Shown here: one piece after another, positions 6,998-49,693 of the stretch
How positions within the stretch are numbered: position 1 is the stretch's first letter
Layout: each line of letters opens with the position of its first letter
Assembly: GCA_964187785.1 (NCBI GenBank)
Contig: OZ076415.1
Coordinates: 65,348,001 to 65,412,000 of the forward strand
DNA length: 64,000 bases
From: Amphiscolops sp. MND2022
Lineage: Eukaryota
Direction: 5' to 3'
Position numbers and translations under genes: made by a program
The notes under the pieces: model-generated
The model's database searches: none
Told to the model about the DNA's origin: nothing
What the model saw: the letters and a program-made list of their open reading frames with translations, nothing else

Positions 6998-7356
6998 ATT
7001 TCGAAATTCACACTCTATTGCTACAGCCAATCCTTTAAATGACAATGGTGAATAAAGCGAAAGATGCCCATTTTGTGATTCTGAAACGAAGGTTTTTGTT
7101 AAAACCACGTAGTATCTTTAGAACTTAGTGTAGAATATAATGACAAATTAGCTTTGACTTTTCAGTCTAAATATCGATTTATATATTGCTTGAAACAAAT
7201 GATCATGAATTAAGATTTTCCATTGCATAGGATGTTTATACTCCATAATTTGAAAGTGCACCTTGCACCATGAGAAGGAAAAATGAATAAGTTGGGCATC
7301 TTTCGTAATTATCAGATTCTGTCACTGCATTACCAAGTGCACCCGTTGATCGCTGC

Positions 7357-7628
7357 ATGGATTCCGATGATGCCTCCGAAGGAGAAAGTTCAGAAGCAGG
7401 TTTAGATGTCAAGAGCCGCAATCGTTCACGTCGTGAGGACTTGGAACAATGCATTTTGTGTTTCCAAACTGTTGCGAAAATGCGAGACCACATCACAAAC
7501 AAGCACAAGCTGAATGATCGTCCGATACTCAAGAAATTTTTGTCTTATTTTTCTACACTTTCAACAAAGAAGTGTTTCCAATGTATCCAATGCAAAAAAG
7601 AATGGGTTTTCGATACGGGCACCCTGAG
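7357..7628 (+). CDS. C2H2 zinc-finger exon, probable 5' part of the recombinase gene interrupted by the LTR element
   Basis: CILCFQTVAKMRDHITNKH (C-x2-C-x9-H-x4-H); ends at a GAG|GTATTG donor-like site at 7628/7629. Confidence 0.5.
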
Positions 7629-7642
7629 GTATTGCTGACCAT

Positions 7643-9222
7643 TGTCGCACGCATGGGTAAAATTTGTTTATTAGTTTTAATCTGTCAAGTCCTTGTTTGC
7701 ATTTTACAAGGTACTATCTCGCGACGGTTCTGTTATTGATTTAACAAGTATAAGTCCCAACAAATAAATTTGCAACTTACTAATAAAGGGGGTGCCTTGC
7801 GCTTACGTGCGGACAAAAGAAATTGCGTGAGTCGTGCAAGGCAGTGGTTGTAAATGAGCTTCCTGTTTACTGAAAATGTATGGTGAATAAATATGTTTAA
7901 TTACGAATGAGTTGAGAATATTGAAAGTGGACAATTTCTGGACATAGCCATATCTCTTGCAATTGTTACAAATCTCAGATTAATAAAGATTACAACTTCA
8001 TTTTACAAGAAGAAGTAATATAACTTTTACAATTTATCATTTAAGAAAATGAAACTATTTACAAATAATGAGAATTTCCCTTTTTCTTCGGAAATCTTTT
8101 TCTCAAACAAAATTTACAAATCCGTACTATTTTAAACGGAAGAGTTTTGATTTAGATGTCTCTATTCAGTAGAAAGTTGAATAGCATTAAGACTTTTTCA
8201 TAATATAGCACTTTAAAATTTCAATCATCCCTTTTCTTATGTGAGTTTAAGTAACGTCAACCTTATAGAACTATTTAGTTCTAGTGAAAATAATCAAAGT
8301 TAAAGTTTTGTCAACCGCAGAATTGAAATCAGCGGAAAATAGCTAAATTTGAAGTTTTGTCAACCGCAGAATTGATATCGGCGGAAAATAGTTAAAGTCA
8401 AAGTTTTGTCAACCGCAGAATTGAAATCAGCGGAAAATAGCTAAAGTTGAAGTTTCAGAGAGAGTGAAATCTCTACTGAAAGGTCTAAATAGTCAGACTC
8501 ACCAAACCGGAGACGAAATTGAAGAGAAATTTCTAAGTTAGAAATTTCTTGTAAGGGAAGATTGGTTCTGGAAGTTGAAGTTAAATCAAGGATGAGTGGA
8601 GAAATTTTCTAAGATGCAAGGGTAGGATTAAAAGAGAATCATTGGATCTGAGTTATAAAGCAAGAAGTTTTGTTGAGTTAAATAGGAATCTGAATTGAAA
8701 TGTGAAGGCGAGAAATAGACTTTCTAAGTCTGAAGGGGAAGATAATAGTAAAGGGAGAGGAAAGGGGGTAAAGTAAGAAAGAAGTGCAGGGGTGAGGGGA
8801 GAGAAGTGGAAGAGAAGTGAAGAGAAACGAGAGCTTTTAAGTTTAAGCTCTGTCCGTTTCAATAAGTGTATGAATCTCCTCGCCTGCGTTGGCCGTATAT
8901 ATACAGCCAAGCATTTCTTATCGTGCGCTGCGTAGCAGGCATGGCTTATCTTTCACCAATCATAGTTGGTTTCATATTTCAAATATACGCGGTATAATAT
9001 AGAATTCTTCACTTGTGCAATTCCTTTCTCGTCACAGTACTTCATCATCATTATTACCATCGTTATGGCCGCCGCCTTATGGCCGCCATCTTCATCTACA
9101 ACTTTCTCCCCCATAAACAAACGTTAGTTCTAGTTCATGTTTGTTTCTTTATTTGTTAATTAAATATAAACTGCACTTTAGCACCTAATTATGTTTGTTA
9201 AAGCGTTAGTCATAACGCGACA
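7643..9222 (-). repeat. 3' LTR (1580 bp)
   Basis: Direct repeat of 23951-25530 with three substitutions spotted by eye; TG...CA termini. Confidence 0.97.
8303..8449. repeat. Three tandem 49-bp repeats inside the LTR (also 24611-24757)
   Basis: AAGTTTTGTCAACCGCAGAATTGA... starts at 8303, 8352 and 8401; each unit has a CCGC...GCGG inverted pair. Confidence 0.9.
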
Positions 9223-9234
9223 GCTCACCCCCCC
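9223..9234 (-). promoter_or_regulatory. Polypurine tract
   Basis: Minus strand GGGGGGGTGAGC immediately precedes the 3' LTR. Confidence 0.75.
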
Positions 9235-9259
9235 GGCAGGATGAAAGAAAATAAATGAG

Positions 9260-10197
9260 TTATGGGTCAGACTGAAAGAAGGGGGAGTTATGTAGCGCGA
9301 GTGACTGAGGGGAAGGTTCCTTAAATTTGATTCTAAATATTATAGAGTCATTGTTTAGGAATGCTTCTCTGAAGTTGCAAGTAACTTCGTATGAGGGATG
9401 AAGTCTTCTTTGAGGAGGTTCGGGTGCGTGTAGAGATTGTGAAGGGTATCTTCGTGGTTGTGGGGGTTGATTGGGAAAAGTGTGGACCACTTGTTGCCTT
9501 CGTCCTTCTGATCAAGTATTTCGACTTCTACTGTTTTATCAAAGGGCCATGTTTGTGGGTGAGTGAAGTCGCTATAATGAAGTTCACAGCTAATAGAAGA
9601 GTGGGTCCCACGGAAGATGTTTATCCCGTAAGGGAATATTCTGAAGGAAATTTTGCAGCCTGATAGGTATGTTGGGTAAATAGGGCTCGCGAAGCTGTTT
9701 TTGATGTTGTGAAAGGGATCGTCTGGAGAGGTCCTTGCTTTTCGGTAAAGTGTGGAGAAGGCGGAAACTTGCCAAGTGATAAAATCTTTACCGTTCGCTT
9801 CAATCTGGCTCGCTCTGCTAAGGAGGGAGCTTTGGTGTTTGATTGTCGCTCGCAAATCGAAGATAGTGACTTCCAATTGTTGACGTTTATCTCGTGCCTC
9901 TTCGATTGAGGTACATAGCAGTTTGATTCGGTTTTCTAACTTCTTTTGGGGTTGATTAATGTCCGTTAAAGGGAAGGACTTTCGAAGCGGTGTGCTTTTT
10001 GTTCCCTGGTTATAGGTACTAGTTGATTTCTCCCATTCACTAATCCACATATTTAGTCTTTCCACTCCTTCGAGGTTTGCATGTTCTTCTTGATCGTTTT
10101 CTTCAGGCATAGGTGGCCAGTCGGGGTTAGGGATCGGTAGGTAGGGTTTGTGTTTTGGGATGAAGGGGGTGGCATTTGGGTTTAATTTTTGGCTCAT
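9260..10197 (-). CDS. Accessory protein: PAM2 motif + coiled coil + TRAF-C/MATH domain (one frameshift near 9370-9390)
   Basis: N-terminus QKLNPNATPFIP. TRAF motifs ITWQVSAF, FASPIYPT, IFPYG and TWPF lie in ORF 9355-10197. The last TRAF strand FLNNDSIIFRIKF lies in the overlapping frame 9260-9490. Confidence 0.8.
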
Positions 10198-10775
10198 TGT
10201 GCAGATATGGATCTTAAGGGAACTGTCAGCCGCTGTCCCTTCAGTGCAGGGTTCTCAATAGTGTATTCTTGTCTTTTGTTGTCCCAAAAGACGATTTTCC
10301 AGGTTGAAAACTGTGGGAGTAGAGAATACTTTAGGTTTGCGTTAAACCTAGGTTTTTTAACGTATCTGGCTTTTCTAGTGAAGTATTCCCTTTTATGTTG
10401 CTTATGTAAGGGTGCTTCATCGGCTATCTCGTTGTTCCATTCATGATAGTGTTTTTGTGGTGTGGTTCTTCTGATGTCCTTTCCACCAAATCTAGGAGGA
10501 TGTTGTGTTGACGGGATTGGTGGTATGTCTCCTGTGAATGACAAAGGAAAGGGGAGTTGGTCGGATGGCGTTGGTGTGAAGGTTGGAGTTGGAGATTTTG
10601 AGGGTGATGATGGGACCGTTGAGTCAGGGGGGTCGGGAAGGAAGGTAATTGTTGTAGACGAGTCTGGTGTCAAAAAGTCTGAAGGAGATAGGGGTTCGAT
10701 TTCTAGGTCACTTTCTGGGATAGGATCCAGGGTATCGTCGTCCAGGCTTGGTAGGTCGAATAGTGGTTCTAGATT
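10194..10775 (-). CDS. Accessory protein exon (acidic/Pro-rich N-terminus, basic C-terminus), probably spliced
   Basis: The frame is open from 10775, directly after a TTAGTTTACTTTTAG acceptor-like site, with no ATG. The stop overlaps the next ATG (ATGA at 10197-10194). Confidence 0.6.
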   Translation of the reverse strand, partial: NLEPLFDLPSLDDDTLDPIPESDLEIEPLSPSDFLTPDSSTTITFLPDPPDSTVPSSPSKSPTPTFTPTPSDQLPFPLSFTGDIPPIPSTQHPPRFGGKDIRRTTPQKHYHEWNNEIADEAPLHKQHKREYFTRKARYVKKPRFNANLKYSLLPQFSTWKIVFWDNKRQEYTIENPALKGQRLTVPLRSISAQ

Positions 10776-10821
10776 CTAAAAGTAAACTAATGAATGAATG
10801 AACTTGAAAATGTTTTTGGCT

Positions 10822-12969
10822 TTATATTGGAGCTACGAAGCTCTGTACTGAGGGATAAAGTGATTCTTCCTTATTCTTCAGTGCTTGGAGTTCTACTTCT
10901 TTTCCATTATCTTCAGTTTTCGCGTTTTTATCTTCAACGCTATCCTCGTAAGGGGCCCGCGGGGTGAATACAGAAGTTAAAACTGAAGTAAAGAAAAGAT
11001 TGTACGAAGCACTGAGCAATGTTTTAGTGAAGCTCAGTGTATTACCTGTGAGGTGACGAAGTTCAAAGTATCGGAAGACGAGTACCGTGATATCTATTAC
11101 GAACTTAATGAAAAGAAAGGCGCCAAAATACGCGCCGCAGAGTTCTAGTACGTAAGATATACTTCCAAATGTTTCAAGGAACTGATTTTTGAAGTAATCG
11201 GGTGAGATCATGCCGTCAACATAAAAATCTGTACGGGGTGCATAATACGCGAAAGATTCAGGTCCACTATGGGCCATTGAGGGTGTGATGAGCTCTCGTG
11301 AGAACTTCTGGAGGGCGTTGCGAGACGCTGCGCTGATGAGGATGTTGTCCCAAAATTCTGAGAGTTGTTTAGGCGTATACATTCCCGCGTCTTGTGAACC
11401 AGGGAAGGATCTAGTAATCATTGGTTGTATGTCTTTGGGTCCGAAGATAGCAGGTCGGTCGCGATGTTCGGGTGAAGGAGTGAGGGTAAACCAGGAGTCT
11501 TTGTCTTCCATATCCAATTGAAAGAGGTTCTTAATGCGATCGCTGCAATTTTGGGCGTTCGCGTTAGGATAGGTCTGTCGGGTGATTGGGTCCACGAAGG
11601 CAACCACTCCTTTGTAGAAGATGGGTATGCGGTCGTAGCATCGGTTCATCGTGTGAAGAGGTGAGTGGGATTCCGGACAGTGGTAGAGCCAAGCGAGGCT
11701 GCCATCTGTGTTCAGGAACATTGAGCGATTTCCCGTGAGCATGTATCCGGCGAGGCGAGGATTTTCCATTGATAGCATCAAAATAGTAAGGATTTGAGTT
11801 CTTTCTTGTTCGCATTGTGCTTTGAGGAGCTGGATTTCTGAAGCTTCGAGGAGACGAGTGCTCTCAAAGAAGAGATAATCAAGCTTTGTCCCTTGGTGTA
11901 ACTCGTAATCCATGTTGAGGTAATGAGGTGTATTAGGGTTGGGGTCGCTCGGGCCTCGAAAGAGGTGGAGTCGGCCATTACCAGAACCATCTTCGGGTGA
12001 ATAATATTGTAGTTTAGATGTCTCTCCCATGGAGATGCCGAGTCGTCTGCCGGACGTCATGTCGAAGCCACCAAGTTGGATTGAAACGTACAGGGATTCG
12101 TAGTTGGTCGGGTATACATCGTCTGGTTTGTTGCAATACTTTTGTGGTCTGTTGTAGACTTCGAATAAAAATTTGGTAGTGGAGTCGTTGCCGCTTACAA
12201 TATAGTAGTTAGATCCGTGTTTGATCATGTTCACGATTTCTTTCCTATGTACTGCAAGCACGCAATTATCGGGCTCCGCCCATGTGTAGGCGTATGGGTC
12301 CAGTGACGTCGTTTCGCAACCTAGTTGTTCTAAGGGGCAGGGAAGGACCATCTGAAACGGAGTCAGGACTTTTCCATCTCGAGTTTTTACTGATAATTCA
12401 GCATCTTGGATGTGAGATTCGAATGTTTCTCTTTTGATCCAGCCACCTGTCTTGCATTCATTTCGGGTATCTGGGTCGCGTACACCGTCCCAACTCTTTC
12501 CGTATTTGGCGTTTCTCGTCTGTACTTGTTTCACTCCTTTCTTAAATTTGAGGGGTTGTCCATGGATTATGACTTCTTTGCCTTCACCCATTGCCTTGCA
12601 GGTTTCGGGTGACAGGGAAAGATCGCTGGTGATTCCGTCGTGTAGGATTGACATACTGGAGTGGTCGTGATAACCACAATGCCATTCTTCACTCTGATGT
12701 TTCACACGGCACATAGTGGCGTTGATAGTGCGGCGGAAATGTTTAGTGTATAACGTTACGCTCGCACGACTTACCTCTAAGTTTTCAGGTGCCACATTGC
12801 ATTGTTCAACTTGATTCAATGCGTAGAGTTTATTTTGGGTCATTTCGCCGCAGTCGAAATGAGTTACTCGCAGTTTTTTAGCAACGCTAGCGAGGTTTGG
12901 CGTTGGACGTTGTAATATCACAACGGGCGCGTAATGGGCGCATAAAAAGAGTAAGTAAAATAATTTCAT
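10822..12969 (-). CDS. env: Envelope glycoprotein, chuvirus-G-like (class III fusogen-like)
   Basis: N-terminal signal peptide; Cys pattern HFDCG...C...MCRV......HCGYHDHS; N-glycosylation sequons; C-terminal hydrophobic TM segment; TTTCAG acceptor-like site 2 nt before the ATG. Confidence 0.8.
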   Translation of the reverse strand: MKLFYLLFLCAHYAPVVILQRPTPNLASVAKKLRVTHFDCGEMTQNKLYALNQVEQCNVAPENLEVSRASVTLYTKHFRRTINATMCRVKHQSEEWHCGYHDHSSMSILHDGITSDLSLSPETCKAMGEGKEVIIHGQPLKFKKGVKQVQTRNAKYGKSWDGVRDPDTRNECKTGGWIKRETFESHIQDAELSVKTRDGKVLTPFQMVLPCPLEQLGCETTSLDPYAYTWAEPDNCVLAVHRKEIVNMIKHGSNYYIVSGNDSTTKFLFEVYNRPQKYCNKPDDVYPTNYESLYVSIQLGGFDMTSGRRLGISMGETSKLQYYSPEDGSGNGRLHLFRGPSDPNPNTPHYLNMDYELHQGTKLDYLFFESTRLLEASEIQLLKAQCEQERTQILTILMLSMENPRLAGYMLTGNRSMFLNTDGSLAWLYHCPESHSPLHTMNRCYDRIPIFYKGVVAFVDPITRQTYPNANAQNCSDRIKNLFQLDMEDKDSWFTLTPSPEHRDRPAIFGPKDIQPMITRSFPGSQDAGMYTPKQLSEFWDNILISAASRNALQKFSRELITPSMAHSGPESFAYYAPRTDFYVDGMISPDYFKNQFLETFGSISYVLELCGAYFGAFLFIKFVIDITVLVFRYFELRHLTGNTLSFTKTLLSASYNLFFTSVLTSVFTPRAPYEDSVEDKNAKTEDNGKEVELQALKNKEESLYPSVQSFVAPI

Positions 12970-13037
12970 TTCTGAAATTCTTCAGTCTTTGACAATCAAT
13001 CAGGAAAAATGTTTTTTATAGATATGTGGATCCACGG

Positions 13038-13457
13038 TAAGGCCGTAAAAAGGCAAGCCGTAATATCAAACCGGCAGCTTAGCTGGCACGACACTAAGCG
13101 GAGGTTAAAATTTTATAGTAGTAACCTCACTACTATTGGAAAGTGCCTTATAGAAAGATTGTTTTTTTTTGTTTAAAGTATAGGTTTCGGAGTAAGGCCG
13201 TAAAAAGGCAAGCCGTAATATCAAACCGGCAGCTTAGCTGGTACAACACTAAGCGGAGGTTAAAATTTTATAGTAGTAACCTCACTACTGTTCACACGTA
13301 CCTAAGAGAAGGAGTAGTTTATTTGTCTTTTAGTTTAGTTTAATGTTATGGATCCTGAAATAAGGCCGTAAAAAGGCAAGCCGTAATATCAAACCGGCAG
13401 CTTAGCTGGCACGACACTAAGCGGAGGTTAAAATTTTATAGTAGTAACCTCACTACT
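13038..13457 (-). repeat. Three 97-bp structured direct repeats separated by 58- and 71-nt unique spacers
   Basis: Copies at 13038-13134, 13193-13289 and 13361-13457. They differ only at two positions in copy 2, both in a predicted loop. Confidence 0.95.
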
Positions 13458-13517
13458 ATTCAAAGAGTGCCCGAAGAAAAATAGTAAAAGAAACTAACTT
13501 CAACCATCTGTGAAGGT

Positions 13518-13862
13518 TCAGCTGTAGTTATCACTGATTGATTTTAGACTGGGAGAGTGTTTGTTACGTCTCTGAGCGTCGAGGAAATCGATTAACTTGC
13601 TGAGGAGATGAAGGGTCAGAGGGTGAACGTGATCTAAGTAAGCGATCTCCCTGTAGTCGGTTAGCGCCTTCGCAAGATCTGCTGCTTCTGTCGAGTCTGT
13701 GGCGACAGGGATGAGCCAATGTCCCGTTTGATGTGGTCGGAGGCTGTGGAGTTCAATCTGAAGTGCGGGGGCGCTCTCTTTCCAGGCTATAGAGAGGATC
13801 TCAAGAAGTGTGTTTGTTTCCGGGTGACGCCAGAGGAATTTGAGTTGTATTTTAAACATCAT
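13518..13862 (-). CDS. Small accessory ORF (paralog family), likely ATG at 13862
   Basis: Overlaps the stop of the upstream ORF by 11 nt; shares an S-x-x-x-A-x-L-x3-L-x2-Y pattern with its neighbours. Confidence 0.6.
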   Translation of the reverse strand: MMFKIQLKFLWRHPETNTLLEILSIAWKESAPALQIELHSLRPHQTGHWLIPVATDSTEAADLAKALTDYREIAYLDHVHPLTLHLLSKLIDFLDAQRRNKHSPSLKSISDNYS

Positions 13863-14247
13863 AGGTCTCAACTAGGGTGTGAAGATATTTGATTCTAACC
13901 TCTTCTTCAAAGGGGTTAGTTACTAGGGTGATATCCATAAAATAAACCAAGTCGTCGAAAGCCTTGTCTTTAAGGACGGCGGGGTGTTGGAGTATGTATT
14001 GTTGGAACGATAGGAATAGGTAGGCGTATTCCTTGGACCCGAAGTGAATAGGGAAGAGGACTAGTGCTTCTTTGTCTTCTGGTGTGAGTATACGGACTTG
14101 TATCGCCGAGGTAGTGATCTCGTAAAAGATTGACTGTATTTCGTATTCACCCGTGAGTTGTATGGGTTTCCAAGGAACCGGAGGTTGAAATTGAGTGTGG
14201 AAGTAGTACTTATTTCCTCGAAATACGGCAACTGCGGGAGAGGACAT
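13852..14247 (-). CDS. Small accessory ORF, 131 aa (paralog family)
   Basis: Its ATG overlaps the upstream TAA (TAATG at 14249-14245). Confidence 0.65.
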   Translation of the reverse strand: MSSPAVAVFRGNKYYFHTQFQPPVPWKPIQLTGEYEIQSIFYEITTSAIQVRILTPEDKEALVLFPIHFGSKEYAYLFLSFQQYILQHPAVLKDKAFDDLVYFMDITLVTNPFEEEVRIKYLHTLVETYDV

Positions 14248-14468
14248 TAAAGGACTGACTTGGCTCTTGTGAAGACTTCGGTAGGTGTGTTATTATATAG
14301 TAGACTCTCCAGTAGTGGGTAGATAGGTGATGCTGGCACACACGTGTAGGTTTCACTCTCTTCTTCTGCGATTGCGTAGGCTTGTATGATTATGTTCTGT
14401 GTTGAGGGTTCCTTCTGAATATCAGTTATCTGGGAAAGTCGGTTGTCAATTTTGAATATTATGATCAT
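14247..14468 (-). CDS. Small accessory ORF, 73 aa
   Basis: TGATG overlap at its start and TAATG overlap at its end. Confidence 0.55.
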   Translation of the reverse strand: MIIIFKIDNRLSQITDIQKEPSTQNIIIQAYAIAEEESETYTCVPASPIYPLLESLLYNNTPTEVFTRAKSVL

Positions 14469-14635
14469 CAGTGAGCTGTTATGCCTTGTGGCGTGTGTGC
14501 ATCAAACATAGCAAATCTGAGAATGGAATCATCAGTTATTTCATTGCGTTTTTGGGGGTATTTGTAGAGGAGAGAGGATTACGACTTCATGAGTCGTCGT
14601 AGTAAACTAGACAAATGTCCGGGTAGGATATTATA

Positions 14636-14727
14636 TTTTATATCTGATGACTAAGTTGAATAGTGATACATATATGGTTGACTTCAATCAATAATTATAA
14701 ACACTTTGCATGACTTTAAATAAATCA
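14636..14727. promoter_or_regulatory. Candidate internal bidirectional promoter
   Basis: TATAAAA on minus at 14642-14636, TATAAA on plus at 14696-14701 and Inr-like TCA at 14725-14727; divergent ORFs on both sides. Confidence 0.35.
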
Positions 14728-14742
14728 AATTTGTATTTAGGG

Positions 14743-15405
14743 ATGAGCAACAACAACAACAACAACTATAGCGACTATTACGAAGAATCCTCGACCGATG
14801 AGGAGACTACTGCTCCAGGGTCTGTGTCGGGCACTGCCGCTACCTCTTTGCCGCCACAATCGTCGTCGTCAGCTGGGCCGTCCTCGTCGAGCGGAGCGCG
14901 CACCAGTTCTTCTGCTCCCGCGTCATCAGGTTCTCAGGCAGGGACCTCTGGGGGTGGGTCTTTTGTGGCGTTTGTGGCCCCGAGGACTAGTGGCCCTTTT
15001 CCGCAAGCTCCCTCTACCATCTCGCAGGGTGTTTTGGAGAGCCCGGGGGATCAAAGTTTTATGGGTTTATTTACCCATAGGGATATCGACCGCCTAGAAA
15101 ACTGGGCTTCATTAACTAGTTCCCTTCAGGGTACCCCCGGGTTTTCTGTTTCTGGGCCTCCCGGTCCAAATGCTCTAACTAGTTTCTTGCGGGCTAACTG
15201 GGGGGCCCGTTGGGAGCAGACTCTCCTGTCCTCTCTCGGCGAAATAGTCGTCTTCCAGCTGCGAGCCTACATAAGTGGCTACTCGCAGCTGACTAGTTTT
15301 GAGAGGGGTCAGTGGACCCGCCTCTATTCATTGTGGACAATGGGGGAGCGGGCGGCTCAGCTGCGGCGACTTGCAGAGAAGGGAGGTTTCCTGGAGATTG
15401 AGTAG
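14743..15405 (+). CDS. Antisense accessory gene (Ser/Gly-rich N-terminus, helical C-terminus)
   Basis: Long ORF opposite the element strand in a region with no minus-strand ORF; TATA upstream and AATAAA at 15532-15537. An alternative ATG is at 14710. Confidence 0.65.
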   Translation: MSNNNNNNYSDYYEESSTDEETTAPGSVSGTAATSLPPQSSSSAGPSSSSGARTSSSAPASSGSQAGTSGGGSFVAFVAPRTSGPFPQAPSTISQGVLESPGDQSFMGLFTHRDIDRLENWASLTSSLQGTPGFSVSGPPGPNALTSFLRANWGARWEQTLLSSLGEIVVFQLRAYISGYSQLTSFERGQWTRLYSLWTMGERAAQLRRLAEKGGFLEIE

Positions 15406-15572
15406 GCATTATTGCCTCTCATCTCCAGGAAATACTTTATTTTTCTACGCTTTTGTGTTTGCTGCTTTTCGTAAGTTCCTTCTCGGGGTTGCACAAATTG
15501 TATAGATAAAAAGTCTAATAATAATAATAATAATAAAGATAATATTTTTTTCGAATAAGCGGTAATATCCGG

Positions 15573-15998
15573 CTAGGAGCTAGGCGAGGAGATAGTAGAA
15601 CAGCAGAATAAGTCTTTTTGTGTGTTAGGTAATGAAGGTTGTAGGTCAGGTATCAGGGTAGGCATGTAGGATAGTAGTTCCTCTAGGATAGGGTCATGGT
15701 GGGTGACGGCATAATAGGCTAAGTGTTGATATAAGCGGGCGAAAGTAGGTGATTCTGGGTGTATATGAAGGTTAGATTTTCTAGGCGTAGGTTGTTTATG
15801 TGGGCTAGGATCTGGGTCGTTGGAGTAGAAACAAATTCTAACTATTTTGTTTTTGTAGGTCCAGTAGATTTTAGTAATCGTAACCTGCAGAATTCCTAAG
15901 GACTGGAGTTCTCGCGGGACTTGCCAAGGCAAGTTTAGATAGACTTTATGGCACGGCATAGTAAGGTTATTCTTTGTAACCAATTCTAGTCCTTTCAC
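15573..15998 (-). CDS. Small accessory ORF after pol, 141 aa (paralog family)
   Basis: Overlaps the pol stop by 32 nt; LHIHPESPTFARLYQHLAYY resembles FPIHFGSKEYAYLFLSFQQY of ORF 13852-14247. Confidence 0.6.
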   Translation of the reverse strand: MKGLELVTKNNLTMPCHKVYLNLPWQVPRELQSLGILQVTITKIYWTYKNKIVRICFYSNDPDPSPHKQPTPRKSNLHIHPESPTFARLYQHLAYYAVTHHDPILEELLSYMPTLIPDLQPSLPNTQKDLFCCSTISSPSS

Positions 15999-18900
15999 GA
16001 AGTATGGACTGTCGTGCTGGTTGATTGGGTTGTGCTCGCTGATAACGTGGATTTCTCTCTATTTGGCGGGCAACAGCCTTTCGTAACTCTTGCAAGGGAG
16101 TCGTTGACTTGGTAGACGATGCCGGGGTGTTAGTTGGGGGTGCTGGAGTTGGTTGACGTTGAGTTAACGTCAGGATAGGGGTTGCTGCGTTTTGAGGATG
16201 TGATGTCGAAGGCTGATCGGGAGTCTTGGGAGTTGACAACAACTGATTTTCTGGAGAGATGATACCAGAGTCTGTGCTCTGGGGGGTTTGCGTTCTTTTG
16301 CGGGCAAGTATTTGGTTTTGTTGATTCCGTACTGGCAATATGGAGAGGTCTCCGAGTTTTTGTGGTTCTGAAACATTAAGTTGTTCAATTCTTCCTTTGA
16401 CAAGATTGTTATAAAAATCCGTGTCTCCACGGTGGGGAGTAGTGTATTCTTCGATAAGAGGGGGGAGTGTTTCTTCTTTAGGAAAGTATTCTATTAGATG
16501 GTTCCTATGTACAGTTCGGAGATTCTCGGGGTTTTGATCTTCCATTATTTGGTAAGTTGTATTTGTAATTCGTTTGGTAACCGTAAAGGGTCCTAGTCGC
16601 AGTTGTTGGAGTTTTTGGCTTTTGGAGAGGTCTTTTCGATGGTTCTCTAGCAGAACCTTTTGTCCAATGTTGAGGTGGTTCCCAAGTTTAAATCTGTTCC
16701 TGTAGGCGTGTGATTGAGCTGTTTGTTTTCTGCACTTTTCATATGTGGATGAGTAGACCTTTTTGAAGGCTGTTTCTCGTTCCAATAAGCTTTGTGATAG
16801 TTGTGGTCGTAATAGTCCATTTAGTAGTTCGTTTTTGACTTGGTTTTCGCTATGGCAATGAGGAGGTAATCCTTGACAGAATTGTGATTTGCAGTTCTTG
16901 TTTTTGTTCCTGTAGAGTCCCAGCTTCAGACTCATAGGTATCTGTGGTTTATTGCAAAACACTATCTCGTAGGGGGTCTTTCCAGTCGTGTAGTTGACGC
17001 TTGTGTTGTGGGCGAATGCAAATTTGGCAGCTAGTTGGGCCCAGTTGTTTCCTGATTCGTTTAGGAAGTTTCTCCAGTATCTTGCAATGTGTTGATTTTG
17101 AGTTTCTACTTTGCCATTTGTCCAGGGTGAGTGTGCGGTTCTTGGTCGAAGTGTAATGCCAAACTCTTTAGTCCAATTGACGAATTCAGTGTTCACGAAA
17201 GCTGTTCCTCTATCATGTACGATAGATTGAGGGATGCCATAGTGCATAATCCATTTTTCCATCGCATTGATTGTAGATTGTGCTCCTGTGTCTCTGACTG
17301 GGTATGCCATCAGGTAACGTGAGAAGGCGTCGATGATCAGAAGGCAATGTGAATTTCCACGACTGGGAGGATTGAGTGGTCCTTTGTGATCAATGTGGAT
17401 GGTTCTGAATACTTGAGTTTCGGTTTCGCAGTCTTCCAGTGGGACTTCGTTGTTTCTCCGTTGTTTGGATTTGTTAGATTGGCAGCTAACACAATCTTGT
17501 GTGAGGGCACAGATCCAGTTGTGCATCCCTGGCCAGTAGTAAAATCTCTTAGCATTGAGGAAGGTCTTTTCTGCTCCCATGTGGCCGCCGAGGTCGTTGT
17601 AATGTCCCATACGAAAGCAAGCTAAAAATAGAGAGAGAGGTAGACAGATTCTCAGATTCTCGTCTGTTGGGTCATCAGTTGGCTCGTTATAACAAAGGAG
17701 GTTTCCTTGGCCTTCTATAGATAATCTGTCGAATTCCTGAAAGTAACGCATGAGGCCTTTTGAGTGTTGTAACTCTGGTGATTTTGGTTCGGGTTTGTTT
17801 CCTGTTCTTACCCATTGTCGGACCACGCTGAGTACCGGGTCATTTATTTGTTCTTGTAAGATCGTTGTAACGTTTAGTTCTACTTCTTTGGATAGTTTAT
17901 CAAGTTGTCTGACAAGTTCCTGTGTTGGTGTCTTTTGTTTTTCAGTTGAATTTGTAGGTAGATCGAGGTGTTCTATTGCCTTCGCGTTTTTGGGAAGACT
18001 TGGGTTACGTGCGATGGGATCTTCTGTGTTGAGCTCGTAGTTGGTCTCGTTTATTTCTTGACTCTGATTGTCTGTGAGGGCTTCGTCATCCGTATCACTG
18101 TTGATGGAGCTGTAAGTGTTTTGTGATAAATCCGAAGTGCTATCCCGTGTTCCTGACCTGATTCTTAGTTCTTCGAATTTTCCAAGTTCTCTTCCAGCGT
18201 CGAGGCAACTCTGTGCTGACTCTACTTTCGGCAGGTTAGGTTCTTCGTAGATAGAGTTAACTGTGAAGTTATTCCCATCATTTTGGAGATGAAGTACTTT
18301 CCGTTCTTTTCCCTTCTCGTACAAGATGGGGTAAAAGTCGTTCTTGGATGTCTCTTCATTTTCTTCGTGTTTGATTTTGTAGTGTACTTGGGTTCCATGT
18401 TCGTCGAAAAAGTGTATGTCAGTTGGGATGACTTTGTGACTGAGTTGATGTTTCTTGTGTTCCTCGATGGAGACGTTTCGACTGAGTATGTCAGGGAAGG
18501 CTAGGTTGCTTCCTGGAGTCCAAATTATCTTGAGATTCGGGAATTTAGATATAATTACTTGGTACCTGAAAAAACGGGGTGAAATTTGTCCCTTTCTTCC
18601 CCAGAGATAAAGAATCGGCTTGTGATCGCAGTATAGGTAGATGGGGAAGGGAGATCCGATGATGTAGTGTTCATACGTCTGAAGAGCTGAGACTATGCCA
18701 CATAATTCTCTGTGTAGTGTGGACATCTTTTGTTCTTCCTTTGCGAAAACTCTTGAGTTGAAGGAAATGATCCGTTTCCCTTCTGGGAATTGTTGGATGA
18801 GGATACATCCTGTCCCAACGTTTGACGAGTCGACGTGTATGTGAAAGGGGTATTTTGTCGAGGGTATTGCGAGCACTGTGTCTTCGGTAATTCTTTTCTT

Positions 18901-21477
18901 TATTTCCTGGAAAAGGTCTTCGTGTTCTTGGTTCCAGCAAAAATTTGTATCTTTCTTGGTGAGTTCGTAAAAAGGTCGACTATCGACATGAAGATTCTTG
19001 ATGTAGCAGCTATAGAAGCCCAAAGCTCCTAAGAAGCTTTTCACTTCGGTTTTGGTCTTTGGTGATTTGAGATTGTGTAGGTCTTTTACTCGTTTTGCGA
19101 CAGGTTGTATTCCTTCGGCTGCTATCACGTGTCCCAAAAACTTGACTTTCCTTAAGAAGAAGAGTGTCTTATCTGGTGCTGCCTTGAGTCCGGCTTTCCG
19201 CAGTAAGTTATGGTATTCTTGAATTACCGTGAACATTTCTTGTTTGTTTTTGGCTTGCATCAACGTGTCGTCGATGTATGTAATTGCCTGTTTCCTTTTG
19301 ATGAGGGGTTCGAAGTGGATAGTCATCATTCTGCTAAAGAAGCTTGGTAATCCCTTGAGTCCATAGAATCCCCTGGTGAAGGTGTATTGTTTTCCGCCAA
19401 TGATGAAGCTGGTGAGTTTTTGCGTGGGCTCGTCTAATGGGACTTGGTGAAATGCACAGGAGAGATCACTTACTGAGAAGATGTTTCCATTTATTAGTGT
19501 CATTATGGTTTGGATCGGTTCTAAGGGCCAGGAATAATTTGTTAGATCTGTCACCGAGTTTAGATATCTCGCATCTATGATCAGCTTGACATAGTCATGT
19601 TTTGGTTGTAGTATAATAGGATTCACAAATAAGGATCCCATTTCTTCATCGTCGCCCATTTCTCTGATGATATCAGCGTCTTTGAGTTGTGTGAGTAGCT
19701 TCTCTAGCTTTTCTCGTAGGTGAAGTGGTACTTTGCTGGGTCTCTGTCTCTTTAGAATTGCTCCAGGTTCTAGTTTAATGTTAAATTTTTGTCTGGTTTT
19801 CCCTACGTCAAATTTGTGTTGGGAGTATACATCTCTTGCGTCCATTAGTAAGTCTATTAGGAGAACCAGTTCTTCGTCTGTGAGGTCTGAGTAGCGAAAG
19901 TCGAATTCTTTAATGTATCGCACTGCTTCCTTATTTTGATACTGAAGGTAGTACTCGATCAGTCGTTCGTTGTCTTCTTTTGGCCTGAAGATTTTAAATT
20001 GCTCATCGCAGGGTGGTTGACAGGACTTTGCGTCGCTTGTGAAGTCTGTCTCCAGCTCTCTATGTTTGAGATGAAATTGCTCGGAAAATTGTTGTATCTC
20101 ATCTTCTAGTACGTATTCGGGGTCTCCTCTTGTAGTCATGGCATAGACATCTAGTTCGTTTCTTGTATAAATTCGGAGTTGTATTTCTGAGTATGCAAAT
20201 ACGTCTTGAATGAGTTGAGTGACGTCTTGCCATTGGAAGTCTTCTAGCTCTGAGGCTTCCCGTAGCATGGATATAGTTTTGATGCCGCTCATTTTGGCGT
20301 GTGCTTTTAGAGTTTCGAGAGATTGAACTAGTAATTGTGGGTCAATCTTGTCTTTTGATTTTGCTTTCGTAATCAGAACATATATAAATCGTTTCAGAGT
20401 TTCGTCCCAGTAGGGTATGGTTTCTCCTTTCTGTGGTTTCTGTTTTGCGCATGTATCCTTAAGTGAAGGTATTTTCGTTAGGATTTCTTTTGAGAAGCCT
20501 TTGGCTGGCTTTAGGTCGGCCGGGACGAAGATGATGATAGGGTCTGGTCTGCTGAGTATTGTTTTCGAGTTTCCTCCTTCTATTCTGAGGCAATCGTTCA
20601 TATCTTGTGAAGGAATGGTAGAGTGTAATAGGAAACAGTCGTTGTATTCTTCGTTTTCGTTTAGGATAGCATATGCGAGTTCTGTCGGGTTTCTAATTTG
20701 GTATTTCGGAATTTCTTGGTCTAATACGTCAAGCATTGAGTATCCGATAGTTCCTTTTACTAAGGTGATTGTATGGTTTTTGTTGTTTTCCATGACGATT
20801 GGTAAAGTCTTCTCAAATCGTGTGCAGAGGACATTTATGAAGTTAAGTCCAGTAGAAACTGCCTTCCTGTTCGGTAGGAACGTAGATCCAGGAGGAAATG
20901 AGTTATTAGTGTTTTCTGGTGCGAATTTGTAACATCTTGTCGTCTTTGGTTCGATATACATTGAGTGAGGAATTCTGACTGAGAGAATTTGTGATATATA
21001 GGGGTAACATTTGTTGAGTTGTAGGCTACCATAGCAGAAAGTATTTATAAGTCTTTTGAGTTCTATGCCAGGAAGATCAAAGTGTATTTTGTTAACTTGT
21101 TCTTGGCAGAAATTCATTCCAAGGAGGTTTTGGGTTTTCATCTCTGTTATCCAGACTGTTAATGGGAAGTTATGTTGTCCATCGGAATCGTAGTAGAGTT
21201 TGAGGGTGATGTATCCCATCATAGGGATGATCTGCCCAGAGTAGTTCCGTGTTGTGTTATTGCTTCTACTAAGTTCTAGGTCTTGTTGAAACTGGCAAAG
21301 TTCTCTAAAGGTCCTGTAGTTGATGATTGAAGATGTTGCCCCAGTGTCTAGTAGAAATTCGATTTCTAAGCCACTATCTTTTTGTGAGTCTCCGGCAGCA
21401 AAATAATAAAGATTAAGACTAAATTTTAGAGGGGCACTGCTGCTATTTCTATTTTTCGGAGACCTTAGTAGTTTAAA
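15967..21477 (-). CDS. pol: Pol polyprotein: protease, macrodomain, reverse transcriptase, RNase H, integrase
   Basis: The frame is open upstream of the track ATG (21222) and includes LLDTGA at 21348-21337. It has RT YIDD, RNase H VDSS/DHKP, integrase HHCC (H.....GH...CVSC), the D,D(35)E-type core IHID/HDRG/KVETQN and a GPF motif. Confidence 0.97.
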   Translation of the reverse strand, partial: FKLLRSPKNRNSSSAPLKFSLNLYYFAAGDSQKDSGLEIEFLLDTGATSSIINYRTFRELCQFQQDLELSRSNNTTRNYSGQIIPMMGYITLKLYYDSDGQHNFPLTVWITEMKTQNLLGMNFCQEQVNKIHFDLPGIELKRLINTFCYGSLQLNKCYPYISQILSVRIPHSMYIEPKTTRCYKFAPENTNNSFPPGSTFLPNRKAVSTGLNFINVLCTRFEKTLPIVMENNKNHTITLVKGTIGYSMLDVLDQEIPKYQIRNPTELAYAILNENEEYNDCFLLHSTIPSQDMNDCLRIEGGNSKTILSRPDPIIIFVPADLKPAKGFSKEILTKIPSLKDTCAKQKPQKGETIPYWDETLKRFIYVLITKAKSKDKIDPQLLVQSLETLKAHAKMSGIKTISMLREASELEDFQWQDVTQLIQDVFAYSEIQLRIYTRNELDVYAMTTRGDPEYVLEDEIQQFSEQFHLKHRELETDFTSDAKSCQPPCDEQFKIFRPKEDNERLIEYYLQYQNKEAVRYIKEFDFRYSDLTDEELVLLIDLLMDARDVYSQHKFDVGKTRQKFNIKLEPGAILKRQRPSKVPLHLREKLEKLLTQLKDADIIREMGDDEEMGSLFVNPIILQPKHDYVKLIIDARYLNSVTDLTNYSWPLEPIQTIMTLINGNIFSVSDLSCAFHQVPLDEPTQKLTSFIIGGKQYTFTRGFYGLKGLPSFFSRMMTIHFEPLIKRKQAITYIDDTLMQAKNKQEMFTVIQEYHNLLRKAGLKAAPDKTLFFLRKVKFLGHVIAAEGIQPVAKRVKDLHNLKSPKTKTEVKSFLGALGFYSCYIKNLHVDSRPFYELTKKDTNFCWNQEHEDLFQEIKKRITEDTVLAIPSTKYPFHIHVDSSNVGTGCILIQQFPEGKRIISFNSRVFAKEEQKMSTLHRELCGIVSALQTYEHYIIGSPFPIYLYCDHKPILYLWGRKGQISPRFFRYQVIISKFPNLKIIWTPGSNLAFPDILSRNVSIEEHKKHQLSHKVIPTDIHFFDEHGTQVHYKIKHEENEETSKNDFYPILYEKGKERKVLHLQNDGNNFTVNSIYEEPNLPKVESAQSCLDAGRELGKFEELRIRSGTRDSTSDLSQNTYSSINSDTDDEALTDNQSQEINETNYELNTEDPIARNPSLPKNAKAIEHLDLPTNSTEKQKTPTQELVRQLDKLSKEVELNVTTILQEQINDPVLSVVRQWVRTGNKPEPKSPELQHSKGLMRYFQEFDRLSIEGQGNLLCYNEPTDDPTDENLRICLPLSLFLACFRMGHYNDLGGHMGAEKTFLNAKRFYYWPGMHNWICALTQDCVSCQSNKSKQRRNNEVPLEDCETETQVFRTIHIDHKGPLNPPSRGNSHCLLIIDAFSRYLMAYPVRDTGAQSTINAMEKWIMHYGIPQSIVHDRGTAFVNTEFVNWTKEFGITLRPRTAHSPWTNGKVETQNQHIARYWRNFLNESGNNWAQLAAKFAFAHNTSVNYTTGKTPYEIVFCNKPQIPMSLKLGLYRNKNKNCKSQFCQGLPPHCHSENQVKNELLNGLLRPQLSQSLLERETAFKKVYSSTYEKCRKQTAQSHAYRNRFKLGNHLNIGQKVLLENHRKDLSKSQKLQQLRLGPFTVTKRITNTTYQIMEDQNPENLRTVHRNHLIEYFPKEETLPPLIEEYTTPHRGDTDFYNNLVKGRIEQLNVSEPQKLGDLSILPVRNQQNQILARKRTQTPQSTDSGIISPENQLLSTPKTPDQPSTSHPQNAATPILTLTQRQPTPAPPTNTPASSTKSTTPLQELRKAVARQIERNPRYQRAQPNQPARQSILRERTRIGYKE
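21387..21477 (-). promoter_or_regulatory. -1 ribosomal frameshift signal (UUUAAAC + downstream stem)
   Basis: The slippery heptamer T TTA AAC lies in the gag frame at 21477-21471 and pol is in the -1 frame. A 6-nt spacer is followed by GGTCTCCG pairing with CGGAGACT and GCAGCA pairing with TGCTGC. Confidence 0.8.
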
Positions 21478-22919
21478 GGGCGGAAATCGGCAATAGAGTT
21501 CACCGAGTAGTCGGTTTCTAAGAACTGTACTGTGTTGGATCTTCCTATGTCATTAGTTTTTGGGAATCTTTGCTCGTAAGATTGAGTTGGAGTGTTGGGT
21601 CTTTCGTTTCTGTCTAGTGGTCTTTGAAAAACTGAGTTATTTCTTGGTGGAAGAAGTTGTATGTTGCGATTAAAGGAGCTAGACTGGTCTCTGTTGAAGT
21701 TGAACGGAGATCTTGCTCTTTGGGGTCCGGGGGAAACACTTCTGGAGTTGTTAGAATTGTTTAGGAAGGGTTTTCTCCCTTCTTGTGAAAATCTTTGGTT
21801 ACCAGGATTGACTCTTGTATTCGTAGGTCGGCGTTCTGGGTTGAAATTTTTTCTTTGTGGTCTATCGTATTGATTCCAGGCAGGGTTTGACTGCATAGCT
21901 CCAGCCAGTGCTAGTTGATGTGCCACAGCCATATGTTTTCTGATTTCTGAATCTGGTAATCTTGGTTGAAATCTAGAGCCATGTTCAGGTCCAGTTCTTT
22001 TGTTGTAGTCGTTGGTGAATGTTATTCTTCTTTCTGGGTTAGCTTCGTTTTGAACCTTCTTCACTTCTTCATCTCTCATCTTCTTTCTGCACCAGTTAGG
22101 TGTGTGCCCATTTGTTCGGCAGTAGCCACAGAATCGTGTGGCCATTCTTCGACCTGTAGCATTAGGGTCTACAGTTTTCTCTACTGCGTTGATTGTGTTA
22201 TTCATCTGTTCTTTGATTTGTAGTTTGATTCCCTTCAAGTCGTCTCGCATTTCTTGTATGAGTGGGTCTGAATGTGATTCTCCGCCAGTTAGGGCGGTAG
22301 TTACCGTGTAGGAGAGGTCTTTGTTTATTACAGCTTGGGAGAATTGTTCCCAGGTTGCATTCGGGTGATCCATTAAATATTCGTGTGCCTTTTCTCTTAG
22401 TTTTGGAGGTCTTAGGCCTCTCAGTGAGTAGTCGATGCACCTTTGTCTTCTTTGTCGGTCTTGTGCTGCTCTTTCTGCGTTTCTGTCGTTTTGTGCGACG
22501 CCGGCAAGATCATCTGGCCAGCCTTTCCCCACAACAATTTTGATTCTGTGTAGAAAATTCTTTATCTCTTCTCCATCTCTTCTGGTGACATGTTCTGCTT
22601 CCATTCTGTGTCTGAATTTATTTCGGCCATCTGCGAATCTTGTGATGAACCTTTCTCTGATTTCTTGCCAGGTGTTAGCGTCTGTGATACTTGTCTCGAA
22701 CCACTCCGCTGCTGGTCCTCTTAGTAGTGTAGCAAAGTAGGATTTTCTCCTGAAGTTGTAGTCGTCAAGTGCTGCTCCGTTTGCTGGGGTATCACCATGA
22801 GAGAAACGGAACTTCTTTTCAATTAGCTGTATAAATTGTTCAGGATCTTGATCTGGGTCTGTTCCCGTGAATTGGTCTCTGCCGAGGTCTGGATAAGCCA
22901 AGTAATTTTGCGCAGCCAT
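21465..22919 (-). CDS. gag: Gag (capsid + CCHC zinc knuckle)
   Basis: Ty3-like LRGPAAEWF capsid motif; CGYCRTNGHTPNWC = CX2CX4HX4C. Confidence 0.95.
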   Translation of the reverse strand: MAAQNYLAYPDLGRDQFTGTDPDQDPEQFIQLIEKKFRFSHGDTPANGAALDDYNFRRKSYFATLLRGPAAEWFETSITDANTWQEIRERFITRFADGRNKFRHRMEAEHVTRRDGEEIKNFLHRIKIVVGKGWPDDLAGVAQNDRNAERAAQDRQRRQRCIDYSLRGLRPPKLREKAHEYLMDHPNATWEQFSQAVINKDLSYTVTTALTGGESHSDPLIQEMRDDLKGIKLQIKEQMNNTINAVEKTVDPNATGRRMATRFCGYCRTNGHTPNWCRKKMRDEEVKKVQNEANPERRITFTNDYNKRTGPEHGSRFQPRLPDSEIRKHMAVAHQLALAGAMQSNPAWNQYDRPQRKNFNPERRPTNTRVNPGNQRFSQEGRKPFLNNSNNSRSVSPGPQRARSPFNFNRDQSSSFNRNIQLLPPRNNSVFQRPLDRNERPNTPTQSYEQRFPKTNDIGRSNTVQFLETDYSVNSIADFRPLNY

Positions 22920-23929: not shown

Positions 23930-23947
23930 GCCTCACTGGTCGCACCA
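23930..23947 (-). promoter_or_regulatory. Primer-binding site (18 nt)
   Basis: TGGTGCGACCAGTGAGGC begins after a 3-nt spacer following the 5' LTR; its complement ends in CCA like a tRNA 3' end. Confidence 0.85.
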
Positions 23948-23950
23948 GTT

Positions 23951-25530
23951 TGTCGCACGCATGGGTAAAATTTGTTTATTAGTTTTAATCTGTCAAGTCC
24001 TTGTTTGCATTTTACAAGGTACTATCTCGCGACGGTTCTGTTATTGATTTAACAAGTATAAGTCCCAACAAATAAATTTGCAACTTACTGATAAAGGGGG
24101 TGCCTTGCGCTTACGTGCGGACAAAAGAAATTGCGTGAGTCGTGCAAGGCAGTGGTTGTAAATGAGCTTCCTGTTTACTGAAAATGTATGGTGAATAAAT
24201 ATGTTTAATTACGAATGAGTTGAGAATATTGAAAGTGGACAATTTCTGGACATAGCCATATCTCTTGCAATTGTTACAAATCTCAGATTAATAAATATTA
24301 CAACTTCATTTTACAAGAAGAAGTAATATAACTTTTACAATTTATCATTTAAGAAAATGAAACTATTTACAAATAATGAGAATTTCCCTTTTTCTTCGGA
24401 AATCTTTTTCTCAAACAAAATTTACAAATCCGTACTATTTTAAACGGAAGAGTTTTGATTTAGATGTCTCTATTCAGTAGAAAGTTGAATAGCATTAAGA
24501 CTTTTTCATAATATAGCACTTTAAAATTTCAATCATCCCTTTTCTTATGTGAGTTTAAGTAACGTCAACCTTATAGAACTATTTAGTTCTAGTGAAAATA
24601 ATCAAAGTTAAAGTTTTGTCAACCGCAGAATTGAAATCAGCGGAAAATAGCTAAATTTGAAGTTTTGTCAACCGCAGAATTGATATCGGCGGAAAATAGT
24701 TAAAGTCAAAGTTTTGTCAACCGCAGAATTGAAATCAGCGGAAAATAGCTAAAGTTGAAGTTTCAGAGAGAGTGAAATCTCTACTGAAAGGTCTAAATAG
24801 TCAGACTCACCAAACCGGAGACGAAATTGAAGAGAAATTTCTAAGTTAGAAATTTCTTGTAAGGGAAGATTGGTTCTGGAAGTTGAAGTTAAATCAAGGA
24901 TGAGTGGAGAAATTTTTTAAGATGCAAGGGTAGGATTAAAAGAGAATCATTGGATCTGAGTTATAAAGCAAGAAGTTTTGTTGAGTTAAATAGGAATCTG
25001 AATTGAAATGTGAAGGCGAGAAATAGACTTTCTAAGTCTGAAGGGGAAGATAATAGTAAAGGGAGAGGAAAGGGGGTAAAGTAAGAAAGAAGTGCAGGGG
25101 TGAGGGGAGAGAAGTGGAAGAGAAGTGAAGAGAAACGAGAGCTTTTAAGTTTAAGCTCTGTCCGTTTCAATAAGTGTATGAATCTCCTCGCCTGCGTTGG
25201 CCGTATATATACAGCCAAGCATTTCTTATCGTGCGCTGCGTAGCAGGCATGGCTTATCTTTCACCAATCATAGTTGGTTTCATATTTCAAATATACGCGG
25301 TATAATATAGAATTCTTCACTTGTGCAATTCCTTTCTCGTCACAGTACTTCATCATCATTATTACCATCGTTATGGCCGCCGCCTTATGGCCGCCATCTT
25401 CATCTACAACTTTCTCCCCCATAAACAAACGTTAGTTCTAGTTCATGTTTGTTTCTTTATTTGTTAATTAAATATAAACTGCACTTTAGCACCTAATTAT
25501 GTTTGTTAAAGCGTTAGTCATAACGCGACA
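23951..25530 (-). repeat. 5' LTR (1580 bp)
   Basis: Copy of 7643-9222; candidate TATATATA at about 25205-25212. Confidence 0.97.
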
Positions 25531-49540: not shown

Positions 49541-49693
49541 AAATATTAGAATACTATAGAATGATAACAGCGTAATAATAATATCTATAGTATTGTAGAG
49601 TATAGTAGTAGTTGCAAAGTATGGGTTGTAAGTAATTGCGTTAAGCAATGTATAGAATAACAGAGTATAGTTTAGTAGGTGTATTGTTTAGTA

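Follow-up and report, generated by a model that had tools for sequence, protein, structure and literature searches.

An intact Ty3/gypsy element from a probable acoel genome carries an envelope gene predicted to encode a class III, Monjiviricetes-type fusogen

The window analysed here, a stretch of 64,000 nucleotides from the assembly of Amphiscolops sp. MND2022, contains an intact Ty3/gypsy element of 17.9 kb (7643-25530) whose env gene (10822..12969, minus strand) encodes an intact type I membrane glycoprotein of 715 aa, predicted to be a class III fusogen related to the G proteins of Monjiviricetes and to herpes gB. As intact gag, gypsy pol and gB-like env are found together in one multi-copy LTR element, it corresponds operationally to an HSV/gB-type "errantivirus". 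This assignment is likely to be right, and env would then be a working class III fusogen carrying particles from cell to cell. The pairing of a gypsy pol with a chuvirus/gB-like env has already been published and is not new. What is new is the host phylum, unsampled by the published survey of such elements, and a complex accessory set that includes a TRAF-like ORF and a TARG1-like macrodomain.

The env reading frame runs from ATG to stop with no internal stop. Its N-terminus is hydrophobic (Kyte-Doolittle 1.5-1.8 in 19-residue windows starting at residues 1-3), a single C-terminal transmembrane segment is located at about 603-637 (window starts 603-619, peak 2.09) and is followed by a tail of about 70 aa, and four N-glycosylation sequons are present at positions 83, 261, 414 and 474; an R-x-x-R furin motif was looked for over the 715 aa and is absent. 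The ORF, its hydrophobicity and the motif positions (FDC38-40, C57, C87-R-V and HCG-Y-H-D-H-S 97-104) bear out the initial annotation, which had described an intact 715-aa type I membrane protein with a cysteine/histidine motif. Each of the 14 ectodomain cysteines, from C40 to C475, is present in 92% or more of the homolog rows covering it, as illustrated by C40 (48/50), C98 (52/56) and C386 (64/67). Since both histidines of the "H.H.S" part vary among homologs, the signature of the family is, at the sequence level, the cysteine frame without the histidine pair. Besides, env matches the Pfam family PF24664 (Monjiviricetes_fusion) with an E-value of 4.5e-33 and 114.6 bits against a cut-off of 27, and so do 68 of the 69 aligned homologs, none of which (0/69) matches an F-type Pfam family at E up to 0.1. 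Sequence searches of the PDB with env alone or with its profile returned no significant match, and a scan of viral contigs for env relatives gave 18 pattern matches, of which 0 were confirmed.

The AlphaFold2 model of env, built from the 69-row alignment, has a pLDDT of 78.9 and a pTM of only 0.52, and consists of an elongated beta domain, a central helix of 46 residues (355-400) and a C-terminal beta domain. The best nine matches of this model in BFVD are chu-, xinmo- and qin-like G proteins plus one unnamed protein (E 2e-34 to 2e-28), the identity being 13-18% over the best ten, and rhabdo-like G proteins and herpes gB come next. In a Foldseek search of the PDB, all 35 rows listed are herpes gB (best E 5.8e-14). 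The VIA structural search places gB first as well (Z 9.4), with domain IV of PRV gB at Z 8.7 and 3.5 A over 154 residues, and the G proteins of rabies and Chandipura viruses (Z 5.2-6.2) and the thogotovirus-genus GP of Bourbon and Thogoto viruses (Z 4.1-5.0) at lower ranks. In the language-model atlas, Monjiviricetes fusion clusters (0.96-0.97) rank ahead of gB and rhabdo G, the recognition value being low. The whole-chain TM-scores of these matches are low (0.27-0.43), probably reflecting domains of the monomer model that are not set in one native conformation; because of these scores and of the pTM of 0.52, it is the E-values and the domain matches that carry the fold assignment, and by these the predicted class III fold can be regarded as secure. 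The candidate fusion loops near C98 and C172 occupy the expected positions, but their tips are only moderately hydrophobic and vary, relatives having S, H, F or M in place of Y100 at the putative loop tip. A trimer prediction for residues 350-600, in which the alignment was not used and the fold of the partner is uncertain, scored 0.00 and speaks neither for nor against a trimer.

The initial annotation had called env a chuvirus-type class III glycoprotein. The class III part of this assignment is upheld by Pfam, Foldseek, BFVD and VIA, whereas the strict chuvirus label is not secure, since xinmo-, qin- and rhabdo-like G proteins score near chuvirus G, and "Monjiviricetes-type" is therefore the wording adopted here. 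A class I, F-type env is ruled out by the lack of an R-x-x-R motif, the lack of F-type Pfam matches and the positive matches to class III proteins; the best structural matches are chu-, xinmo- and qin-like G proteins and herpes gB, and no F protein occurs among the structural matches listed. Monjiviricetes G proteins, the comparators being those of dermapteran chu-related virus 142, Tacheng tick virus 4, xinmoviruses and a qin-related virus, have the Pfam family, the cysteine frame and the predicted fold in common with env, but they are encoded by negative-strand RNA viruses, their identity to env is low and no donor family stands out. Herpes gB, rhabdovirus G and thogotovirus GP resemble env in the order of their domains, with a crown domain, a PH-like domain, an elongated fusion domain and a long central helix, although their identity to it is 9-12%; herpes gB moreover needs gH/gL, and no such partner gene is evident beside env.

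Concerning the way env would work, the trimer, refolding and fusion steps are deduced from the class III fusogens VSV G, herpes gB and thogoto GP. Env would enter the secretory path and be displayed on budding particles, trimerising via its long helix 355-400 and requiring no furin cut. After uptake, a trigger that does not involve cleavage, probably low pH, would cause env to refold; the elongated beta domain (about 81-236) would insert its tip, with the loops near C98 and C172, in the target membrane, and env would then fold back and bring about membrane fusion. Drosophila gypsy moves from soma to germline, and by analogy a soma-to-germline transfer may be the likely purpose of env in this element.

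The element is bounded by two 1580-bp LTRs on the minus strand, the 5' LTR at 23951..25530, which begins and ends with TG...CA and bears a TGTCGC/GCGACA terminal inverted repeat, and the 3' LTR at 7643..9222, which is preceded by a G-rich polypurine-tract-like run. The two LTRs differ by 3 mismatches (99.8% identity), and a 4-bp target-site duplication, CCAT, flanks the element. The primer binding site (23930..23947, minus strand) is complementary to the 3' end of the host tRNA-Met(CAT): a pattern pairing it with a T-arm and acceptor stem has 6 genomic matches against 0 for the control, and ARAGORN recognises tRNA-Met(CAT) at one of the three PBS-matching loci scanned. The gag gene (21465..22916, minus strand; 483 aa; dN/dS 0.067) has Retrotrans_gag and weak Ty3_capsid matches and one CCHC-like knuckle. 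A TTTAAAC slippery heptamer lies immediately before its stop (21468..21477, minus strand) and is kept in all three relatives checked (L018, L021 and L025), so that pol is likely to be reached from gag by a -1 frameshift. The pol gene (15967..21549, minus strand; dN/dS 0.058) is an open frame of 1860 codons encoding, in this order, a protease (60-149), the TARG1-like macrodomain, RT (685-809), RNase H (872-1003), an H2C2 zinc finger (1308-1361), an integrase (rve, 1383-1475) and an SH3-like C-terminal domain, and these Pfam domains confirm the PR-RT-RH-IN order read initially.

The Pfam domains of pol form a gypsy-type set, and its best PDB match is Ty3 Gag-Pol (E 2.4e-55), ahead of foamy virus and MLV. 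Peptidase_A17 (PF05380) is absent from pol at E up to 1, whereas it has at least 150 strong matches elsewhere in the genome, and a BEL RT query matched 0 of 11 element loci. In an RT/RH tree of 69 rows, from which RT rows more than 88% identical had been thinned and which was rooted on two BEL/Pao rows (four of the six BEL/Pao loci, without usable RT, were dropped), the window pol belongs to a distinct 21-row clade (stem 0.66, SH-aLRT 100), far from BEL/Pao. The gypsy Pfam set, the Ty3 match, the RT tree and the absent Peptidase_A17 rule out a BEL/Pao identity, a grouping of the RT that had been considered at the outset, and on sequence grounds the element is a Ty3/gypsy (Metaviridae) one.

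With regard to the origin of env, its homologs amount to 1246 clusters at E 0.001 or better. In the genome, env adjoins a pol of the window clade in all eight other full families examined, and it adjoins a same-clade pol in two of seven metagenome loci (L025 and L029), no pol being seen in the other five (1.3-4.3 kb). The env and RT distances of 11 linked pairs are strongly correlated (Spearman 0.941, Mantel p 0.0001); as the pairs include three near duplicates and related rows, this value speaks of long joint descent and does not count independent events. The env and RT trees of the linked pairs, a comparison suggested at the outset, indicate co-divergence with no starred conflict, reaching down to about 44% RT identity. 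Since env and RT diverge together over these 11 pairs, the sequences point to an old association, in which env would have been inherited for long with the window pol lineage. Env is 28-44% identical to the env of the most distant linked elements, the farthest lying at 28-30%, against at most 18% to any named viral G, and this identity gap, together with env tracking RT, rules out a recent capture from a chuvirus.

The initial annotation had proposed a new and independent capture of the fusogen, which is not supported in the light of the published gB-type gypsy env genes and of the env-RT correlation. A related view, possible but on the whole unlikely, is that the pol lineage of the element acquired env from a Monjiviricetes virus in an event of its own, distinct from the origin of env in the other gB-type errantiviruses; such an event would be ancient, dating to the base of the 21-row RT clade or below it. 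The depth and distinctness of that clade, the gap in RT identity among homologs (41-100% on one side and at most 35% on the other) and the fact that the best structural matches of env are RNA-virus G proteins are in its favour, as is the derivation, in the accessible text of PMC13524379, of errantiviruses from several gypsy lineages, for which repeated acquisition is one explanation. Nevertheless, env is closer to its distant linked counterparts than to any named viral G and tracks RT, and gB-type env is widespread in gypsy elements of cnidarians, ctenophores and tunicates (PMC13524379). A bolder form of the same idea, which has to be considered quite speculative, would credit acoels with a deep lineage of infectious and complex retroviruses of their own, whose class III envelope protein would have come from an early Monjiviricetes virus independently of other errantiviruses. 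Their 18-kb genomes would feature accessory genes that are spliced or antisense, a small family of repeated proteins without an assigned fold, a TRAF decoy and an ADP-ribose eraser. If this were true, the acoel elements would be to invertebrates what complex retroviruses are to vertebrates, with an origin at the base of Bilateria and a spread that continues today.

The old association of env with its pol lineage is accompanied by recent amplification. A genome search for env, in which 62 of 8781 candidates were scored and whose counts are thus lower bounds, gave at least 64 matches; 48 are full length, 42 of these 48 are stop-free, and 24 are at least 98% identical over the full length. The copies are spread over most large contigs, at least 15 LTR pairs 16.1-16.6 kb apart were read by hand, and the element is a young, recently multiplied, multi-copy one. 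At least nine env-bearing families are present in the genome, and their RT identities span 45-98%. Taking the next family as reference (96% env identity, dS 0.66), the dN/dS of env is 0.039 over 715 codons, with 216 synonymous versus 42 non-synonymous differences.

These copies also bear on the view that env is maintained for a non-infectious function of benefit to the element or the host, such as adhesion, receptor blocking or the fusion of cells with each other, the element itself multiplying within germ cells. Internally deleted copies, such as the one at C5:29.77 Mb whose LTRs lie 7.3 kb apart, retain an intact env, ORF D and the TRAF-like ORF, no gag or RT having been found in them, and the residues of the fusion loops are variable, both of which would fit such a function. 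However, env resides in mobile multi-copy elements and not at one fixed locus, it is under selection as strong as that on pol (0.039 vs 0.058), and hardly any change relative to the next family affects its central helix, stem or TM, which makes this view improbable and leaves particle-borne fusion as the preferred role of env. Finally, the element or env could be an artefact of the assembly, a contamination, or a piece of an RNA virus that was integrated passively next to a retrotransposon; arthropod genomes commonly contain EVEs of Jingchuvirales glycoproteins alongside fragmentary gypsy copies (PMC10084718). This reading is refuted, with barely any probability left to it, by the position of env between two 99.8% identical LTRs with a target-site duplication, by the spread of the copies and their LTR pairs, and by the link of env to same-clade pol in eight other families and two metagenome contigs.

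The element encodes six accessory ORFs, four (one of them antisense) in the 3.0-kb gap between pol and env and two after env, with dN/dS values of 0.05-0.16, dS being near saturation for several of them. In the gap, ORF A (15573..15959, minus strand; 128 aa; dN/dS 0.068) is a possible paralog of ORF B (13852..14247, minus strand; 131 aa; dN/dS 0.076) and ORF C (13518..13862, minus strand; 114 aa; dN/dS 0.092). The paralogy of the three is only partly supported by their sequences: the A-B profile match (E 0.0014) is above 30 of 30 shuffles and a joint A/B/C profile finds an ORF of family F on which it was not trained (E 1.8e-4), whereas the A-C and B-C matches do not exceed all 30 shuffles. The model of ORF B (pLDDT 76.6) consists of a beta-sheet and helices; it has no match in the Atlas, none in BFVD at E 0.001 or better and no clear fold match in VIA, where the best Z is 4.1 and many PH-like rows are tied at about 3.5. 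The antisense ORF (14710..15405, plus strand; 231 aa; dN/dS 0.15) belongs to no family and has a homolog in families B and C. Just 5' of env, three tandem repeats of about 155 bp (13037..13509, minus strand) are kept in related families; their folding z relative to shuffles is only -0.7 to -1.9, and no Rfam match was obtained in the element at E up to 1.

On the other side of env, ORF D (10194..10775, minus strand; 193 codons; dN/dS 0.052) lacks an ATG, and its start coincides with a T-rich, TAG acceptor-like site. Because such a site follows the env stop in all six families examined, ORF D is likely to be a spliced exon; no splice donor inside env is common to the six families, and the acceptor-like TTTCAG that precedes the env ATG in the window is not kept in family B. 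The TRAF-like ORF (9355..10197, minus strand; 280 aa; dN/dS 0.16) displays a weak PAM2-like N-terminus, a putative coiled coil and a MATH/TRAF-C domain, with no RING; it matches PF21355 (E 8.4e-7) and TRAF5 (6ku5, E 4.1e-6), and its relatives score down to E 8e-23. It is present in families A-F and was not found in five more distant elements. The macrodomain (20140..20574, minus strand), which is TARG1/OARD1 (C6orf130)-like (E 2.8e-11 to PDB 4j5q) and sits between PR and RT, is likewise common to families A-F, and motif comparison indicates that its Gly-rich loop is replaced in the family of the window element. Both genes may have been added later, in one sub-clade, and the macrodomain and the RING-less TRAF-like protein probably counter host ADP-ribosylation and innate-immune or death signalling.

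Macro domains are known from fish ERVs (PMC4977317). The closest parallel for the TRAF-like ORF comes from the giant planarian gypsy elements Burro/GYPSM1, which are also large and env-bearing and possess MATH/TRAF-C, as a separate accessory ORF in one species; their env is described as homologous to the F-like Env of gypsy and lies in frame between gag and pol (available text of PMC6431247). In the window element, by contrast, env is class III by prediction and stand-alone, and the TRAF-like ORF is located 3' of it.

Several published elements are close to the one reported here. Anakin elements, mosquito BEL/Pao elements with a Chuviridae glycoprotein, were reportedly described by Dezordi in 2020. 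They are likewise LTR elements with a chuvirus-like class III glycoprotein, but have a BEL/Pao pol and an insect host (PMC10084718, PMC12440569, PMC13524379), whereas the window element has a gypsy pol and an env only 13-18% identical to the best viral G. No clear capture of such glycoproteins by gypsy elements in arthropods is reported in the available text of an earlier study (PMC10084718). More recently, Chary and Hayashi (eLife 2026, PMC13524379) gathered 1512 env-bearing gypsy elements across metazoans, among which gB-type env is about as common as F-type env, and 114 gypsy elements were found using Chuviridae-like BEL/Pao glycoproteins as bait. The initial annotation had opposed an F-like errantivirus env to a chuvirus G confined to BEL/Pao elements, a contrast that this survey contradicts and that is thus out of date. 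According to its accessible text, the "ancient" HSV/gB-type errantiviruses have, like the window element, a Ty3/gypsy pol, a gag-pol-env order, LTRs and a tRNA PBS, a gB-like class III env with signal, TM and conserved cysteines in which a furin site is not always kept, near-identical multiple copies, and an env co-diverging with pol. The same text argues for a Pre-Cambrian origin of the gB-type/errantivirus env genes, and states that the fusion trigger of gB-type env in the absence of gH/gL is unknown.

Xenacoelomorpha are not among the groups surveyed in the accessible text of PMC13524379, acoel names are absent from seven of its supplements, and its main text does not contain the words "macro" or "TRAF". 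In non-insect genomes the survey filter allowed at most 1 kb, the manual windows used in some phyla being wider, compared with the 3.0 kb that separate pol from env in the window element. No earlier description of env-bearing gypsy elements from acoels was found, nor any acoel report of macrodomains in gypsy pol or of TRAF in retrotransposons, most subscription journals and Repbase lying outside the search.

Judging from its COX1, the host is most likely an acoel, of a species other than the two with the nearest named COX1 given below. The place of these worms is close to the root of Bilateria, and the element fills a gap of the survey at the place where the claim of a Pre-Cambrian env origin is best tested. 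The presence of at least nine env-bearing families in one host makes it possible to study env-pol co-divergence there, and the intact, strongly conserved env offers a usable subject for the triggering of fusion without gH/gL. Besides, TRAF signalling and ADP-ribosylation are indicated, by the TRAF-like and TARG1-like genes, as host defences that acoels may use against retroelements. In the single COX1 of the assembly, conserved positions show AGR read as Ser and ATA read as Met, in agreement with the invertebrate mitochondrial code. Its nearest named sequences come from two acoels, Symsagittifera roscoffensis (79%) and Baltalimania ylvae (77%), while other named animals are at 69% or below.

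Two further ORFs follow env in the LTR element. The TRAF-like ORF (9355-10197, minus strand) comprises a putative coiled coil and a MATH domain, with a weak PAM2-like N-terminus, and a RING is absent from it. It is carried by the related env-bearing families A-F, and was not found in the more distant families G, H and I or in the metagenome loci L025 and L029. This ORF is a candidate dominant-negative TRAF decoy. Next to it, ORF D (10194-10775, minus strand) is devoid of an ATG and begins at an acceptor-like site; such a site, 3' of the env stop, is conserved in six families, and ORF D is a possible second exon, comparable to those of complex retroviruses.

The interval between pol and env contains three small ORFs, A, B and C, together with one antisense ORF (13518-15959). 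The layouts of ORFs A, B and C resemble one another, beta followed by alpha, and all four are under purifying selection (dN/dS 0.07-0.15); neither a family nor a fold was found for them. Closer to env, and upstream of it, lie three ~155-bp repeats with hairpin potential (13037-13509). Families B and C have retained them too, and they may be a signal for RNA export, packaging or translation.

Within pol, a TARG1-like macrodomain, seen only in families A-F, lies between PR and RT (~20140-20574, minus strand). The HCISAD and GCGLD-type motifs, which we take to have catalytic roles, are retained in the relatives P0309, P0311, P0313, P0314 and P0315. Since FVPAD and EASELED replace them in the window element's family, its macrodomain may have lost activity.

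Shortened copies with LTRs ~7.3 kb apart also keep env, namely L059 (G000:C5:29769000-29778999) and G000:C4:57541342-57550256. No gag or RT match was seen in L059, which still carries the TRAF-like ORF and ORF D as well as a second ORF with a weak resemblance to MATH (E 0.01). In the distant env-bearing relatives L052/L054, L051/L058 and L029, further large ORFs of 280-1032 aa without a family match in Pfam surround env, and gag-pol of L052 forms a single frame of 2640 codons.

Each LTR contains 49-bp tandem repeats (8237-8504 and 24545-24812), the region in which LTR length differs between copies. The insertion is flanked by plus-strand ORF fragments (25918-26797 and ~6346-7638) without a Pfam match. 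On visual inspection, the fragment at 25994-26797 resembles part of a Crypton-like tyrosine recombinase, so a different transposon may have been the insertion target of the LTR element. Elsewhere in the window, nested tandem repeats occupy ~15 kb (34350-49710), with a ~420-bp base unit and longer higher-order units, and a 103-nt inverted repeat pair spaced by 457 nt (28452-29114) is probably a MITE.
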